A DNA stretch of 50,874 nt, taken from the NCBI GenBank assembly GCA_030650415.1, contig JAUSEG010000006.1:1-50874 (forward strand). The letters are read 5' to 3'. Each line of letters starts with the position of its first letter. Position 1 is the first letter of the stretch. The translations under genes were made by a program, and so were the position numbers. The stretch comes from a bacterium (GTDB lineage Bacteria; Patescibacteriota; Patescibacteriia; Patescibacteriales; GWC2-42-12). The notes under the pieces were generated by a model. That model worked only from the letters and a program-made list of their open reading frames with translations, did no database searches and was not told the origin of the DNA. Below are positions 7,809-17,036 of the stretch, piece by piece.

Positions 7809-7829
7809 AAAAGTACAATTGAATAGTTA

Positions 7830-7934
7830 AGTTATCAAGAGTGCAGCGAGGGAACTAGCCCGACGACCTGCCAGCAACCCCGGAGCAATCCATCCGGAAG
7901 GTGCCAATTCTAGCCCGACAAGGGAAAGATAAAG
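7830..7934 (+). promoter_or_regulatory. SAM-I (S-box) riboswitch aptamer
   Basis: GTTATCAAGAGTGCAGCGAGGGAACTAGCCCGACGACCTGCCAGCAACC...GGTGCCAATTCTAGCCCGACAAGGGAAAGATAAAG matches the S-box blocks in order. The blocks are TTATCAAGAG, GAGGGA, GCCCGA.GA, GCAACC, GGTGC.AATTC and AGATAA closing P1. Confidence 0.9.
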
Positions 7935-7954
7935 GTCGATTTTTTATTGGTAAA

Positions 7955-9743: not shown

Positions 9744-10394
9744 ATGTTAGAAAAATTTTGGGATAAAAATAAACATATCATTAATCTTGCGGCTATTCTT
9801 GTGGCAGTTGGTGCAATATTTTTGACAATCCCGCTTCCTCAAAATGAAGAAGCAAAAAAGTATTTAATAAATGTACAACTTTTTTGGTTAGTCATTATTT
9901 CGATAATGATTGTTGTTATTTTAGTATTATTTTATTTATTTTCAATAGAAATAGAAAAGAAAATAGAAGAGAAAAAATTTAATATAAACGGAGCATTATC
10001 AACCCTTATTTTTATGTCAGCATTATGGTTTATGGGCAATTTGTGGAAGTATATATTAGTATTGTATAAAGAACAATATTTAAAGCTCGCATCTAACTTG
10101 GGGTATGCAATAACTTTATTTTATTTTGGGTTACTTGTTTTTGTCAGCGAAAAAATTATACCATACTATTTCTCCAATAATAAAAAAAAGTTTTTTTCAT
10201 TATTCGCAATTACAGCTCTGTTGGGTTCTATGGGCGTAGCCTTTATTGAAGCCATTATAAATTTAAATTTTGATATTATTGACTGGGTCTTTGCTACAGA
10301 AATTAAAGTGATTAGTAGTATTATTATAATTTTTATAAAATGCGAAATTACAATCAGAAGAACAAAAAATATTAAGGGCAAAAATCCTCAATAA
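9744..10394 (+). CDS. Multi-pass membrane protein, hypothetical
   Basis: Track ORF of 216 aa with five to six hydrophobic segments. Confidence 0.55.
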   Translation: MLEKFWDKNKHIINLAAILVAVGAIFLTIPLPQNEEAKKYLINVQLFWLVIISIMIVVILVLFYLFSIEIEKKIEEKKFNINGALSTLIFMSALWFMGNLWKYILVLYKEQYLKLASNLGYAITLFYFGLLVFVSEKIIPYYFSNNKKKFFSLFAITALLGSMGVAFIEAIINLNFDIIDWVFATEIKVISSIIIIFIKCEITIRRTKNIKGKNPQ

Positions 10395-10671
10395 TTAAAA
10401 AGTATATTGCCCCCCGTTGATTGAACCAGGATTATTATCACTACCGAGCACATTAATTTTGTGGTATAATGTGTATAAGTCAATAACTTCTTAAATGTTA
10501 GCAAATTTTGCTAATTTAATAATAGCCTAATGTAAAAGAGTTAAAGTTTCCAAACAAGCCCTTGACTTTTTTTATTTATTGTCTTAAGATAGTTATTCAT
10601 TGAAAATTTTTTATTTAGTGTTAGGGTAAAGAATTTATAGTTATTAAGTTTTTTCTTTTTCAAGCTTTGAG

Positions 10672-10845
10672 TTAGTTGCCACCCTTAGTCGGTCTCACTA
10701 AAATTACCTTCTGAAGGTGGCCTGGTGTATTAGGCGGCACAACGTCGCCCTTAGATAATGCTAATTCAGTTTCCCTCCCTACATATCTGTAAATCCCTGA
10801 TTGCGGTGTCCTAGTGCCAGTTTTGGCTGAAATTTGTTTGGACAT
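10672..10845 (-). CDS. Small YjzC-like protein (57 aa)
   Basis: ATG at 10845 and TAA at 10674-10672. MSKQISAKTGTRTPQSGIYRYVGRETELALSKGDVVPPNTPGHLQKVILVRPTKGGN follows the G.K.P.SGIY....G.E..L.KGD..PP pattern that I associate with YjzC-family proteins. Confidence 0.5.
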   Translation of the reverse strand: MSKQISAKTGTRTPQSGIYRYVGRETELALSKGDVVPPNTPGHLQKVILVRPTKGGN

Positions 10846-10897
10846 ATTTTATTTCTTTATGTTTTTTCTTCACCCCAACACGAAATAAAAAATTCAC

Positions 10898-11245
10898 ATA
10901 ATGCGATCGTCCTGGTCAAGTTATGTTAATTAATACAAACAACAAACGAAAGGAACTGTTACAAGCAGTTCTTTTTGTTTTTATTTTTATTTACGCCGGT
11001 TATCGTTAGGCCGGGAATTTTAAATATGAGGAGCTTTTTGGAAAAATAGCTTTTCCAGCCCTCATAATATAATTACACAGCATCCAATCGGTTCCGTCCT
11101 TTTCGGTAATTAAGAAGCATACCTGTGAAGGCAGCTTTTCTTTTTTTTCTTCCATAAATTTCTGTTTCGCCCGTCACTCAAAATTGGGTTGTATAAGCCC
11201 GTTTAAATGGCGGGCTTTCTTATTTGGCCAGAACGATCGCATTAT
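10898..11245. repeat. 22-bp inverted repeat pair (2 mismatches) enclosing 304 bp
   Basis: ATAATGCGATCGTCCTGGTCAA at 10898-10919 pairs with TTGGCCAGAACGATCGCATTAT at 11224-11245. Each arm reads outward like a TTGNCC...CATTAT promoter sharing a CGATCG core. Confidence 0.7.
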
Positions 11246-11267
11246 ATAAATTTTTAAACGAACAAAA

Positions 11268-11388
11268 AAACTACTGAATTGGCGGAACTTCATAGGGTGA
11301 GAATTAGTCCAATTTTCACCCTAAGATGTGAGGTCATAGGGCTATCCATTTAGATTTCCCCTATGAAGCACCACCGATTAAGTAGTTT
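11268..11388. ncRNA. Candidate structured RNA: 30-position closing helix around a 60-nt core
   Basis: 11268-11297 pairs with 11359-11388 (25 Watson-Crick pairs, 1 G-U, 4 mismatches). CATAGGG occurs twice (11291, 11335) and competes for a single CCCTATG (11359). An internal hairpin GGGTGA/TCACCC is also present. No known RNA class recognised. Confidence 0.35.
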
Positions 11389-11516
11389 CTGCCTTGGTCT
11401 GGCAAACGTCCGCCTGCTTCTCCTCACAAGAAGCAAAAATAAAATTTTAATGTTCCGTGATTATATTTTAACATGCTATAAATAGCTGTCAAGTTTAACG
11501 GCCTACATATTGTCGG

Positions 11517-11545
11517 GTCAGCTTTCCGTCAAGCTGACTTTATTT
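11517..11545 (+). terminator. Intrinsic terminator-like hairpin
   Basis: GTCAGCTT, loop TCCGTC, AAGCTGAC, followed by TTTATTT. Confidence 0.5.
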
Positions 11546-11820
11546 AATATAGCCCAATTTATTTAGTTTTGCGGGCTTATTTAAACTATCCGGTAGATGC
11601 TGTAGAGTTTGGTAAATATGTAATCTGGGGGCGAGAATTAACAAATTTAACCCATTATGGTAGACTAATCCTGTGCTCTTAGATCAGGTATATGAATGTA
11701 ACTATTAACTCGTTGGCAGGAAGTTCTAACTTCCTCTACGACTCGGAGCATTACTTAATGAAACGAACTCATTGTTAGTTTTCTGCCTTAAGGCAGAAAA
11801 ATTTTCAGGCAGGGAAAGAG

Positions 11821-11851
11821 CCCCGCCCCGCACTTCGGGGGCGGGGTTTTC
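11821..11851 (+). terminator. Strong intrinsic terminator
   Basis: CCCCGCCCC, loop GCACTTCG, GGGGCGGGG, followed by TTTT. Confidence 0.7.
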
Positions 11852-11935
11852 GGTTTGGAGCGAATTAAAAAAGTTTTAAACTATTTAATAAAAAGCTTTT
11901 AAAAGCAATAATTTCCCCGCGGGCAAAGCCCGACT

Positions 11936-12232
11936 TTAGGCAATTTTAAGTTTTTTTAGCACACAGTCTAAATCATTGTCATTTTCAAAACAAAAATTTG
12001 GCTCAATCTCTTTAATAAAAAAATCAATCATTTGATCAGCCGATAAAAATAATCGAAAATGTATACCCTCGTAATTATAAATAAAAACGAGCTTTTTATT
12101 TTTTTTGTTGCTCAAAAGGATTGATTCAATAGTTCTGTTCGGTCGTAAATAATTTGTATCTAACATAGTTATTGTGTTCATAAATTTCTCTATTATTATT
12201 TTGTTATGCCTTCTTAAATTTAAAACTGCCAA
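11936..12232 (-). CDS. Hypothetical protein (98 aa; true start may be the internal ATG at 12181)
   Basis: Track ORF, divergent from the XRE gene. No motif recognised. Confidence 0.4.
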   Translation of the reverse strand: MAVLNLRRHNKIIIEKFMNTITMLDTNYLRPNRTIESILLSNKKNKKLVFIYNYEGIHFRLFLSADQMIDFFIKEIEPNFCFENDNDLDCVLKKLKIA

Positions 12233-12388
12233 AGAACCCTAAAAAATATCGGCTCGAACTTCATTTTAAGCTAAAAGCAACCTTTTCTTATGCTCATCCG
12301 CAAACCTTAACACCACCCCTTGATTTTGATATTCCAGTTTGGCATATTACACTATGGAATATAAAATTTAAGTATTAATAAAATAAGT

Positions 12389-12613
12389 ATGACTAAAACA
12401 ATTTATTCAAAAGATCACAAATTTTTAGTTGAGCGGTTAAAAAAGGCCAGAATTGAGGAGAACATAGATCAAAAAAAGGCGGCCGAGCTTTTGGGCAAAA
12501 CTCAATCCTTCATCTCAAAAATTGAGGCTGGGCAAAGAAGAATAGATGTGGTTCAACTAAAAGAATTTGCGAGAGTTTATAAAAAGTCGCTCAGTTATTT
12601 TATTAAAAAATAA
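12389..12613 (+). CDS. XRE-family HTH transcriptional regulator
   Basis: IDQKKAAELLGKTQSFISKIEAGQRRIDVVQLKEFARVY is a canonical HTH_3 segment. A palindrome TATTCCA-N17-TGGAATA overlaps the putative promoter just upstream. Confidence 0.8.
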   Translation: MTKTIYSKDHKFLVERLKKARIEENIDQKKAAELLGKTQSFISKIEAGQRRIDVVQLKEFARVYKKSLSYFIKK

Positions 12614-12731: not shown

Positions 12732-13390
12732 ATGACGAAATTAAAAGATATTCCAAAATTTGATCGTCCCAGAGAGAAATTTTTGGAGAAGGGATCGGAC
12801 GCTTTAACCGATAGCGAGCTTTTGGCTATTTTGCTTGGTAGCGGGATTAAAGGAACAAATGTAAAAGTGTTGGCACAAAAGATTTTGAAAAAATTCGGAG
12901 ATAATTTATTGAACGCTTCGGTTGATGATTTGATGCAAATTTCGGGAATCGGCCAGGCAAAAGCTTTGCAAATTTCATCCGCGCTTGCGTTGACGAGGAG
13001 AATCTTTGACAAGCAAAATTCTTTGGACAATTTAATTTTATCGGCGCAGGATGCCATTGCTTTCGTTTCGGACTTGAAAGATAAAAAACAAGAACACTTG
13101 ATTTGTCTTTATTTAAACGCACGCAATGCCTTATTAAAAAAAAGACAATTTCAATCGGCACCTTGGACAAAAGTATTATTCATCCGCGAGAAATTTTCGC
13201 TCCCGGGTTGGAAATACACGCCGCCGGGGTGATACTTGTTCACAATTATCCTTCCGGTGATTCAAGCCCAAGTGAGCAAGACAAGCAAGTGGCCAAAAGG
13301 ATAATCGAGGCGGGGCAATTGATGGGTATTAATGTAGTCGATTTTTTGATCATTGCAAAAAACGGTGTGCATAGCATACTTGGCGAGATT
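12732..13390 (+). pseudogene. radC: radC-like JAB-domain gene interrupted by a -1 frame change in an A8 run
   Basis: Frame 0 gives MTKLKDIPKFDRPREKFLEKGSDALTDSELLAILLGSG...LYLNARNALLKK. The -1 frame continues TISIGTLDKSIIHPREIFAPGLEIHAAGVILVHNYPSGDSSPSEQD, which carries the JAMM HxHPSGD-like motif. The switch maps to AAAAAAAA at 13136-13143. Confidence 0.8.
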
Positions 13391-13567
13391 AAAAGTACGG
13401 AGCTGACGGATACGGAGTATGTTGCTGATGGTTCTCAATCTTCTTTGCTTGATCTGCTTGTTGATACAAAACCAGTAACTTTTTACAAAAAAAGTGAAAC
13501 CTCAGATATTAAATTTAAAATTTTAAACAACGAAAGAAGGAAAAATATTCACCAAAAATCAGAGAGC

Positions 13568-13954
13568 AAAGATTTATTTATAAATCAAATTATTTGCGGC
13601 GATGCCGTTGATGTAATGAAAAAAATCCCAGATAATACTGTGCAACTGGTGATTACTTCACCACCTTACAATTTGAAAAATTCTACAGGAAACGGGATGA
13701 AAGATGGCCGCGGTGGAAAGTGGGCGAATGCCGCTTTGCAGAAAGGTTATTCTCATCATAACGACAATATGCCTCATGATGAATATGTAAAATGGCAGAG
13801 AGATTGCCTTGCGGAAATGTTTCGGATTATCCCTAATGATGGTGCGATTTTTTATAACCACAAATGGCGAGTGCAAGGCGGTGTTTTGCAGGGGCGTCAA
13901 GATATAGTTAACGGTTTTCCGGTTCGTCAAATTATAATTAAAAATGTATTATAA
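13568..13954 (+). pseudogene. N4/N6 DNA methyltransferase, N-terminal fragment only (fused in frame to the radC -1 frame)
   Basis: INQIICGDAVDVMKKIPDNTVQLVITSPPYN carries the SPPY catalytic motif. Similarity ends at VRQIII, where a W.K is expected. The AdoMet-binding C-terminal half is absent. Confidence 0.7.
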
Positions 13955-15416: not shown

Positions 15417-16109
15417 TTGAAATTATTTCGGCAAGCCGGACATAGTTTTAAAAAAAATATAAAGCGGTTATTTTTCTTGACTCTTGCTTTTAGCCCGGCT
15501 GTAAAAAAATGTAAACTCCAGGCTAATCGGATTTTAGACTTTAAGTTTGCTGACAGTACTGCTTGGCGAGTAGATTTTTCCGATGTATTTGAAAAATTTG
15601 TACAATATATATTTAAAGAAGTAGCGAAAGAATCCGGCGGGCGCTTGTTGGTAAATTATAAGTTTGATGGATATTCGCCTCGACAATACGCGTGGGAATT
15701 AAATTATCTTGAACCCGATGCAATATTACAGAAAGGTAAGGCGATAGTTATTATAGACGCAAAGTATAAATCTCACCTTTACAATAAATTTGGGGCCAGC
15801 GAAATTTTAAAAGAAGAACATAGGCGAGATTTGCATCAATTATTAGCGTACGTTTCGTTTAGCAAAACCGAAACAAAATTTGGCCTCCTATGCTATCCAT
15901 CGCAAGAAATTGAAATGAAAGAAATACAGTATCGTAACCCCATAAATCAAACTCTAAATAAAATAAAAATATTTGGCCTCCCATTAAAAAATAGTAGCGT
16001 TAGTGAGGCTAAGCGATTATTGTCAAATGAGTTAATGCTAATTGAAGAATTAAGCGATAATGAATCAAGCAAAATTTTGCATAGTACTCTTATGTTAAGA
16101 GGCGCATAA
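15417..16109 (+). CDS. McrC-like PD-(D/E)xK nuclease domain protein, probably N-terminally truncated; no McrB partner
   Basis: FEKFVQYIF...LEPDAILQKGKAIVIIDAKYKS is the McrC-type nuclease core. The track start is a TTG and the N-terminal 40 aa look non-native. Confidence 0.5.
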   Translation: MKLFRQAGHSFKKNIKRLFFLTLAFSPAVKKCKLQANRILDFKFADSTAWRVDFSDVFEKFVQYIFKEVAKESGGRLLVNYKFDGYSPRQYAWELNYLEPDAILQKGKAIVIIDAKYKSHLYNKFGASEILKEEHRRDLHQLLAYVSFSKTETKFGLLCYPSQEIEMKEIQYRNPINQTLNKIKIFGLPLKNSSVSEAKRLLSNELMLIEELSDNESSKILHSTLMLRGA

Positions 16110-16315
16110 AAATAGTATGTTCCCGCCAATTTTACTGGTAAACAATTTAACGGTTTGTACGCGGAAAAATTTGAAATTTAGCTATCATAAAAAATTATGC
16201 TATAATGTGTATATCTGCGGATAAGTCTTGACAAGTAAAATTTTTTAGAGTAATGTTGCTCTACTGGAAGTATCGCAGAAATATGGATGGAATTTCTTTG
16301 ATTTTGCTAAAATCA

Positions 16316-16353
16316 CCCACTCTGCTCCCTTCGGGGGGCACGGTGGGCTTTTT
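16316..16353 (+). terminator. Hairpin plus T5 in the leader of the NYN gene
   Basis: CCCACTCTGCTCCC, loop TTCG, GGGGGCACGGTGGG (one mismatch), then C and TTTTT. It ends 9 nt before the ATG at 16362. Upstream promoter-like sites are TGCTATAAT (16198-16206) and TTGACA-N17-TAATGT (16228-16256). Confidence 0.6.
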
Positions 16354-16361
16354 GTTATATT

Positions 16362-16925
16362 ATGCAAAAGAATGAAAGAGTCGCTGTTTTTATTGACGGC
16401 AGCAATTTATATCATAAGTTAAAGGAACTGCGTATTCCCAACACTATTAATTTTAGTTACGCGGGGTTATGCAAAAAACTTGCCCGAGGCAGGTAAATAA
16501 TTTTCTGCCGCTATTATGTCGGGGCTATTAGGGCCAAAGAAAATGATCAGAAAGGACAAAATCTCCGAGCTAATCAGCTAAGATTATTTAATAATTTAAC
16601 AGCGCAAGGATTTGTTATTAAGAAAGGAAATTTTTTGTTTAATAGCGGCGGTTATCATGAAAAAGGCGTTGATGTTAAATTGGCGGTTGATTTATTAGTT
16701 GGGGCGTATGATGATATATGGGATATCGCTATAATTATTTCATCTGATTCAGATTTAAACCCCGCGATAAAAAAAGTAAAACATCTGAACAAGAATGTTG
16801 AATATATAGGATTTTCTCATAGTCCCTGTTATTCATTGCAAAAAGTTTTATCGTTATCACGATTATTAATAAAAGATGATATAGAGGAATTTATTGCTTT
16901 TAAAAGCGGGGGCGGGCGCTTTTAA
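16362..16925 (+). pseudogene. NYN/LabA-like domain gene with one in-frame TAA (16494-16496)
   Basis: MQKNERVAVFIDGSNLYHKLKEL...LARGR, then a stop, then IIFCRYYVGAIRAKENDQKG...GVDVKLAVDLL...IIISSDSDLNPAIKKV. I verified that 16362 and the track ORF 16635..16925 share the same frame. Confidence 0.75.
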
Positions 16926-17036
16926 AAGCTTTTTATAAAATAGTTTAAAACCTTTTTTTGAATTCAATTCGAGCTGAGGCGTAAAATCGGAGCCCTTCGA
17001 CAAGCTCAGGACAAGCACGATAAAAAAGTTTTAAAC

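Follow-up and report, generated by a model that had tools for sequence, protein, structure and literature searches.

Intervening sequences (IVSs) in 23S rRNA and the leader-trailer helices of rRNA operons both work through processing at long stems, and duplexes of 18-32 bp lie within the cutting range of RNase III. IVSs are selfish, sporadically distributed elements that are inserted in helix 25 or 45 of 23S rRNA. To our knowledge, long stems that close a whole protein-coding mRNA have few studied counterparts, namely the hbs and icaR mRNAs, with shorter pairings, and the open reading frames (ORFs) of IVSs inside rRNA. Here we describe such a stem around a 57-amino-acid (aa) YjzC-like gene of a patescibacterium. 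The gene lies in an ORF-poor stretch, positions 10395-11935, of a 50,874-nt piece of DNA that we call the window; the window is contig C17 of a 1.29-Mb genome (98.7% complete, from a groundwater metagenome) that we label G000, with C-numbers for contigs and L-numbers for compared loci. Judged from comparisons of sequence, the main result is a covariation-backed closing helix around the mRNA of a conserved small protein, set amid similar stems and mobile-element scars.

Among the closest known systems, the 23S rRNA IVS of Coxiella burnetii that carries S23p has a 28-bp terminal stem around its ORF, which is cut by RNase III (PMC4990558). The unit in the window resembles it in that its two ends are complementary and pair into a ~28-30-bp stem around a few hundred nucleotides with one small ORF. 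Unlike the Coxiella IVS, it lies outside rRNA genes, flanked by a membrane-protein gene and intergenic DNA, and a covariance-model scan with Rfam gave no rRNA match anywhere in the window. Its ORF, moreover, belongs to a YjzC-like family and is under purifying selection, and excision by RNase III is here a prediction. With the leader-trailer helices that serve as RNase III sites around 16S and 23S rRNA, the unit shares a long-range helix between the flanks of a functional unit, as well as the tandem placement of several units on one strand; at two related loci, L038 and L040, a tRNA enclosed in a 24-26-bp stem and followed by a T-run comes after the gene module. It departs from the rRNA helices in that its stem encloses a protein-coding mRNA and in that co-transcription of the tandem units is putative.

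A third point of comparison is the hbs mRNA of Bacillus subtilis, in which a 14-nt duplex between the 5' and 3' untranslated regions (UTRs), of about -19 kcal/mol, modulates ribonuclease access; icaR of Staphylococcus aureus and hilD of Salmonella are cited as further 5'/3'-UTR interactions (PMC5737220; Braun, Durand and Condon 2017). As in hbs, the mRNA is small, monocistronic and highly structured, and part of its 5' UTR base-pairs with part of its 3' UTR; the pattern expected of an hbs-type interaction, UTR complementarity kept by compensatory change, is found here in five loci. Unlike in hbs, the helix is 18-32 bp long, a length suited to RNase III, and lies clear of the ribosome-binding site. 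A literature search for inverted-repeat-bracketed genes in the Candidate Phyla Radiation found nothing in the library searched.

The gene module consists of the following parts:

10598-10900, minus strand: self-contained small-gene cassette, comprising the gene and its paired UTRs, as read here
10672-10845, minus strand: YjzC-like gene for a small, hydrophilic, beta-rich protein of 57 aa (ORF, homologues and AlphaFold2 model)
10866-10895, minus strand: 5' arm of the helix, ending 20 nt ahead of the ATG
10605-10633, minus strand: 3' arm of the helix, beginning 38 nt past the stop codon

The arms form an inverted repeat (10605-10633 and 10866-10894; 29 nt, 90%) that was overlooked in the initial annotation of this DNA. 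Over 30 positions, the resulting helix contains 26 Watson-Crick pairs, three sense-strand G.U pairs and one mismatch, and it closes 232 nt that contain the 57-aa ORF. About 30 nt of the 5' UTR thus pair with about 30 nt of the 3' UTR, so that the whole YjzC-like mRNA comes to lie in the loop of one stem. The minimum free energy (MFE) structure of 10590-10900 on the minus strand includes the helix (z -3.8).

Comparison with related loci carries the case for this helix. Relatives of the gene occur at five metagenome loci (L038-L042), two of which, L041 and L042, are identical, and the helix was compared over five independent loci (the window, L038, L039, L040 and L041). Outside the coding region, L038-L042 have no DNA similarity to the window, and the arm sequences differ among loci. 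In every case the gene lies between the arms of a 17-32-nt inverted repeat, at almost constant distances: the 5' arm ends 20-34 nt before the ATG, and the 3' arm begins 38-40 nt after the stop codon, except in L039, where the distance is 11 nt. Because shuffled flanks gave similar duplex energies, we replaced the energy with an ungapped-helix score between two flanks of 110 nt each, one ahead of the ATG and the other past the stop codon, set against 300 shuffles per locus. All five loci contain an ungapped helix of 18-32 bp, with scores of 17-25 against 13-15 for the best shuffle. RNAalifold recovers the same helix from an unguided MAFFT alignment of four modules. In the helix, 90.8% of the cells are paired, compared with 42-49% when the partner is slid by one to three columns, and 12 of the 19 pairs change on both sides, which none of 500 shuffles matched. 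Comparative alignment, which the initial annotation had proposed as a check, hence finds the gene-closing helix preserved by compensatory change. The positions that depart from Watson-Crick pairing are equally telling: over the five loci, they comprise 12 G.U pairs on the sense strand, a single A.C (a wobble on the antisense strand only) and five others. This 12:1 asymmetry is what selection on the sense RNA predicts, and the comparisons indicate that the stem is selected at that level.

The enclosed gene, the only one that the initial annotation could support, stands up as a real gene. Its eight homologues are 63-91% identical and share 31 invariant residues, and of the five variants listed within it in another sample's contig, three affect third codon positions and two exchange Val for Ile; both observations mark it as real and under purifying selection. 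The protein has 57 aa in the window and 56-71 aa in its homologues, and it stands alone as in Pfam family PF14168 (B. subtilis YjzC; 55-60 aa), to which it is weakly but consistently similar over residues 1-45. Unlike members of that family, it scores below the gathering cut-off of 25 bits (18.2 bits, E 0.0032), as do its relatives (14-23 bits); the weak similarity recurs in eight of the nine relatives tested. A profile search of 1.84 billion protein cluster representatives returned 37 small proteins, and most of those tested are weakly YjzC-like. The AlphaFold2 model (mean confidence, pLDDT, 85) has four beta strands and no hydrophobic helix, and a search of the PDB with it returned no solved fold at E <=0.001. 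A literature search for YjzC function found no paper in the library searched. The gene is sporadic, with one occurrence among 25 genomes of the family, 3 among 401 of the phylum, and different neighbours at every locus. In the 401 genomes only two distant homologues were found (L044 and L045), and searches of further genome-contig and viral-contig sets gave no homologue of the module.

Structured RNAs occur beside several of the homologues. Long tRNAs of 84-93 nt with a long variable arm (anticodons UGU and UAU) adjoin yjzC homologues at L038 3276-3359, L040 510-599 and L043 3154-3246, two of them within leader-trailer stems. A LOOT RNA (RF03000) scores above the gathering cut-off at L039 3884-4005, near a yjzC homologue, and another does so at L030 7121-7242, near a recombinase cassette of genome G004.

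The architecture suggests how the stem might act. The genome encodes RNase III (C31:13295-13690; 137 bits), for which the ~30-bp duplex would be a substrate, and the same duplex would hide both ends of the transcript. Most likely, the stem would let the unit be excised from, or insulated from, longer transcripts and would set the lifetime of the mRNA. Similar geometry recurs in the genome. A genome-wide scan found 182 long inverted repeats in the 1.29 Mb, compared with none in a block-shuffled genome, and recovered all three repeats of the stretch. About 25 of the 182 enclose 140-700 nt, often exactly one small gene, including genes of unknown function. Stems of the same geometry surround two GIY-YIG genes (C35:48188-48591 and C18:26840-27288); a 23S_rRNA_IVP gene outside rRNA (C18:8881-9383) and a NYN gene are likewise enclosed, and a tRNA-Cys lies in a stem with 34-nt arms. 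Loci with such enclosing repeats include C42:13036-13672 and C45:28865-29051, and a true IVS is present within the 23S rRNA (C31:2036-2389). In view of these other stem-enclosed genes and the true IVS, we read the gene unit as IVS-like: 10598-10900 is probably a cassette that is processed by RNase III, or protected, at its stem.

A broader proposal, about which we are considerably more doubtful, is that stem-enclosed single genes and tRNAs form one class in Patescibacteria, that is, IVS-like cassettes outside rRNA. Such cassettes would be selfish or accessory units (YjzC-like, GIY-YIG, IVS-protein and NYN genes, even tRNAs). They could sit in any host transcript because RNase III would excise them at the closing stem, and they would decay to ORF-less stems, for example 10888-11255 and 11268-11388.

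The module is one component of a stretch bordered on the left by a membrane-protein gene of 216 aa (9744-10394, plus strand) and on the right by an ORF of 98 aa (11936-12232, minus strand). The gap indeed lacks ORFs of 60 aa or more, the 57-aa ORF being the longest, and it also lacks tRNA, transfer-messenger RNA, RNase P, signal recognition particle RNA and 6S RNA, as initially annotated: no Rfam family reaches its gathering score there, and ARAGORN calls nothing. The sole Rfam match at gathering score in the window is a SAM riboswitch (7829-7935) outside the stretch. Long inverted repeats are concentrated here: three fall within 790 nt, whereas the genome averages 0.14 per kb. An excess of terminator-like hairpins, as had been proposed, is also present (six found, 1.6 +/- 1.2 expected), and the stretch is rich in non-random RNA-type structure. 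For the promoter-like sites with which the initial annotation described the stretch as packed, counting gives no clear enrichment (16 found, 10.2 +/- 3.2 expected). DNA contigs from four other samples match short pieces of the stretch at 97-99% identity and show no covariation. Phage records gave no DNA match to it. We estimate a probability of roughly 60% that the stretch is a non-coding patchwork of four parts at the left border of a mobile defence island rather than a single locus; the figure covers this four-part explanation jointly.

Two further stem units follow the gene module:

10888-11255, no strand assigned: second stem-closed unit, with 32-nt arms (10888-10919 and 11224-11255) around 304 nt
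11268-11388, no strand assigned: 121-nt hairpin element, with a 30-position closing helix and a 61-nt interior

The arms of the first had been described as a 22-bp inverted repeat. The repeat is there, and its actual length is 32 nt, with 88% complementarity. Its interior holds four hairpins and only orphan micro-ORFs, and the minus strand folds with z -7.0. The arms form 28 Watson-Crick pairs, with three wobbles on the minus strand against one on the plus strand, and with the variant 11033 G>A of another sample a hairpin is preserved on the minus strand but not on the plus strand; both are weak hints that the minus strand is the relevant one. Two micro-ORFs exist in this unit as initially annotated, one of 28 aa (10923-11009, plus strand) and one of 49 aa (11006-11155, minus strand). 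The hydrophobic tail of the former arises from the T-run of a terminator (10965-10990) read as Phe, Val and Ile, and the latter has no homologue among 5.8 billion proteins. Ten micro-ORFs of the stretch gave no Pfam match at E <=1 save one at chance level.

The helix of the 121-nt element is likewise present as annotated (11268-11297 with 11359-11388; 83%). Fold z-scores of the element are -5.5 for the minus strand and -6.5 for the plus strand, and two CATAGGG copies (11291-11297 and 11335-11341) do compete for a single CCCTATG (11359-11365), the plus-strand MFE and centroid structures using the alternative pairings. It is ~98% identical in a contig from another sample, where the sole change within the element falls at a mismatch position. 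Its arms share short words (CGGTGGT, GAA..TT) with the tRNA stems of L038 and L040. We considered the element as a decayed tRNA-in-stem module and set this aside; homology could not be shown, and the interior measures only 61 nt. Searched against the 1.29-Mb genome, the arms of all three stem units have no matches besides one another and no second copy. The most coherent reading of the two units, by analogy with the gene module, would be tandem stem-closed units, one a decayed or ORF-less cassette and the other a minimal stem.

A search of 60 related genomes with 10880-11744 returned only low-complexity A/T matches and one match of 85 nt. The latter pairs 11540-11624 with G003:C11:318-403 (minus strand) at 74% identity, directly behind a 322-aa gene; its core reads CCGRTAGATGYTGTA.AGTT.GGTAAATATGTAAT.

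Candidate signals for transcription in the stretch and at the related loci are:

10453-10480, plus strand: promoter-like site with an extended -10, TGGTATAAT, pointing antisense into the YjzC-like gene
11492..11465, minus strand: top promoter-like site of the stretch, TTGACA-N16-TAAAAT, 11/12, with an upstream TG (pattern match only)
10944-10980, plus strand: strong terminator-like hairpin with 17 pairs and a T-run; a weaker minus-strand reading is 10971-10953
About 11195-11222, plus strand: terminator-like hairpin specific to this strand (terminator scan)
About 11515-11545, plus strand: terminator-like hairpin specific to this strand (terminator scan)
L038 3568..3540, L041 3439..3411 and L040 678..650, antisense to the module: promoter-like sites of relatives (pattern match)

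The extended -10 TGGTATAAT was correctly recognized in the initial annotation and misplaced by 10 nt; it occupies 10463-10471, to the left of where it had been put. TTGACT-N17-TAAGAT at 10562-10590 is as described. Between 25 and 28 nt of 10453-10480 recur at 96% identity in genomes G006 and G028, where they are intergenic and upstream of genes, and antisense promoter-like sites of 10-11/12 lie downstream of the module in three of four relatives' loci. Since no plus-strand ORF follows 10453-10480, its sole product would be an RNA antisense to yjzC that ends at 10944-10980. The recurrence makes 10453-10480 a credible candidate for a plus-strand promoter and is suggestive of an antisense RNA to yjzC. 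The minus-strand site 11492..11465 lies upstream of all three stem units and so fits one rRNA-like multi-stem transcript. All five hairpins that had been listed as terminator-like exist, at 10944-10980, 11195-11217, 11515-11540, 11779-11800 (a palindrome) and ~11821-11851.

The right-hand 300 nt differ in origin from the stem units. They had been suggested to be part of a possible cluster of small RNAs; instead they hold a relic tRNA-Asn unit and the terminal repeat of the neighbouring island:

About 11638-11877, plus strand: dead tRNA-Asn transcription unit, with a decayed 3' half and a conserved double terminator, as read here
11702-11750, plus strand: decayed tRNA-Asn 3' half, from the anticodon loop via a T-arm-like hairpin to the acceptor end (alignment)
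11745-11877, plus strand: conserved tRNA-Asn 3' flank with hairpins 11777-11805 and 11821-11851, each followed by T-rich sequence (alignment)
11867-11938, plus strand: terminal inverted repeat at the left end of a 5.1-kb island; the opposite copy is 16918-16957 (minus strand)

The segment 11702-11750 is collinear with intact tRNA-Asn genes. At this fixed position 0.2% of shuffles reach its local alignment score of 24, and similar scores occur by chance elsewhere in the window. Neither ARAGORN nor Rfam RF00005 calls a complete tRNA-Asn cloverleaf, and only the part from the anticodon loop to the T-arm, together with the 3' flank, can be aligned; hence we regard the gene as a relic. The flank 11745-11877 is 79-89% identical to the sequence behind tRNA-Asn(GTT) in G000 (C6:40275-40347) and in four other genera, and compensatory changes keep both of its stems. 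These alignments largely establish ~11638-11877 as a dead tRNA-Asn copy, which is probably an integration scar.

Elsewhere in the family, tRNA-Asn genes keep mobile company. A large serine recombinase (an ORF of 530-561 aa with Resolvase, Recombinase and Zn-ribbon domains) lies between ~190-nt inverted repeats in several genera, at 79-89% identity (G000:C6:40147-42090, seen in L002 and L028; L029; L030 4958-6753; L031). One of these repeats abuts the 3' end of tRNA-Asn(GTT), with the inverted copy beyond the recombinase gene, and the called recombinase ORF extends antisense through the repeat and the tRNA. In G009:C20 (L035 1969-2241), a group I intron (RF00028, 75.8 bits) stands directly before a tRNA-Asn 3' half and flank; the tRNA-Asn may thus be split by an intron.

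The island's terminal repeat is ~105 nt long, GAATTCAAAAAAAGGTTT...CCCGCGGGCAAAGCCCG, and the left copy in the window lacks one GCTTTTAAAAGC unit. The same repeat lies at both ends of 3.4-6 kb of variable cargo in genomes G003, G004, G016 and G017, an XRE-type helix-turn-helix (HTH) gene being the first in the cargo, and the window island, with its HTH gene at 12389-12613, fits this layout of the family's repeat-bounded islands. The shared repeat identifies 11867-11938 as the island's terminal inverted repeat. In the related islands, the repeat is followed at once by sequence matching window 12222-12289, ahead of the HTH gene. The two are separated in the window by a 283-nt piece carrying the 98-aa orphan ORF. 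Since the first 17 nt of this piece correspond to the inner flank that relatives have at the opposite island end, the left end of the island has been rearranged. The cargo is largely broken (12732-13954 and 15417-16925), with radC spread over two frames and fused to the N-terminal part of a methylase, and with fragments of McrBC (C-terminal) and NYN.

Several observations weigh against the patchwork of stem-closed units favoured here. The distant homologues at L044 and L045 show no clear helix, the Shine-Dalgarno sequence of the window gene is weak, and no promoter-like site reaches the scan threshold directly upstream of the 5' arm. Repeats bound by a DNA-binding protein would co-vary too, so that solely the 12:1 G.U bias favours RNA, and several other stem-enclosed genes have perfect arms, which DNA-level processes could explain. 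For the two further units, no relatives of 10888-11255 or 11268-11388 were found in the 60 genomes, and the strands of 10590-11458 fold equally well (-255 and -251 kcal/mol). Finally, the bidirectional terminator 10944-10980 lies inside 10888-11255, before either candidate 3' arm, and a single RNA across both arms of that unit therefore fits poorly.

The alternative that survives best, which we hold to be possible though not probable, is that the plus strand encodes several clustered small RNAs, independent of one another and each with a promoter-like site and a terminator of its own. It is partly compatible with the four-part patchwork. The proposed RNAs would extend from 10463-10471 to 10980 (~500 nt, cis-antisense across the yjzC mRNA), from 11039-11068 to 11222, from 11224-11252 to 11545 (including the 121-nt hairpin) and from 11638-11666 to 11805 or 11851. 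The plus-strand terminator-like hairpins (10944-10980, 11195-11217, 11515-11540 and 11832-11847) agree with this, two of them, 11195-11217 and 11515-11540, being readable as terminators on the plus strand only. So do the recurrence of 10453-10480 at true intergenic promoter positions in other genomes and the antisense sites of the relatives. However, the number of promoter-like sites does not significantly exceed expectation, three of the four promoters invoked score just 8-9/12, no Rfam family matches and none of the segments is conserved in the 60 genomes. The wobble bias of the gene helix, moreover, falls on the sense rather than the antisense strand, and the dead tRNA gene explains the last proposed unit better.

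A second alternative, which we consider rather unlikely, is that the repeats act on DNA, as the ends of small non-autonomous insertion cassettes or as recombinase or operator sites, with the RNA stems as a by-product. The two 32-nt arms with a CGATCG core, for example, would then be duplicated divergent promoter-operators, close to the outward-facing paired promoters of the initial annotation. Each arm of 10888-11255 does read outward as TTGRCC-N17-TRAATT, but with a score of 8/12, below the scan threshold. The surroundings lend the idea some weight, as the region adjoins a mobile island, the yjzC gene is sporadically distributed and the serine recombinase genes of the family themselves lie between inverted repeats of ~190 nt; the perfect arms mentioned above measure 19-33 nt, and their genes encode GIY-YIG or IVS-type selfish proteins. 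Elements resembling miniature inverted-repeat transposable elements are normally multi-copy. By contrast, the three repeats are single in the genome, and their A-rich flanks do not allow a target-site duplication to be recognized. The 12:1 sense-strand G.U bias over five loci would also be unexpected for a DNA site.

Decayed coding sequence, the remnants of one or more broken genes, is very improbable. The neighbouring island is full of broken genes (the split radC; the truncated methylase, McrBC and NYN), and the tRNA gene at the right end has decayed. The ten micro-ORFs, however, are without Pfam matches apart from the one at chance level, phage records do not match and related genomes match only in repeats, and fold z-scores of -5 to -9 together with three long stems are atypical of decayed ORFs. 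Least likely is a type I toxin-antitoxin locus with a toxic 28-aa or 57-aa product under an overlapping antisense RNA, since the convergent layout, in which a promoter and a terminator are predicted antisense to a small ORF, is not joined by a convincing hydrophobic toxin-like peptide (the 57-aa protein is hydrophilic and beta-rich; the 28-aa ORF contains the terminator whose T-run supplies its hydrophobic residues and lacks a Shine-Dalgarno sequence; the 49-aa ORF is an orphan) or by a match to an antitoxin RNA family, the sub-threshold Rfam matches over 10897-10976 (RefA9, the best in the stretch, 34.8 bits against a cut-off of 49, E 0.0056; OrzO-P, E 7.6) lying far under their gathering scores and resting on hairpin 10944-10980.

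The finding that matters most is thus a 30-bp closing stem kept by compensatory evolution, in a geometry that also serves other small genes and a tRNA of the same genome. Stem-closed mRNAs of this kind seem to be common among these bacteria, and the literature describes them poorly. For annotation, the stretch yields one real small gene, a putative dead tRNA-Asn copy that would mark an integration site, and the exact left end of a defence island. If RNase III cuts these stems, bacteria with tiny genomes would process mRNAs as they process rRNA, which is relevant to the ways in which such bacteria keep accessory genes insulated or stable, or tolerate them. Should the proposed cassette class hold true, excision at the level of RNA would be a general strategy for gene cassettes and not a peculiarity of rRNA.

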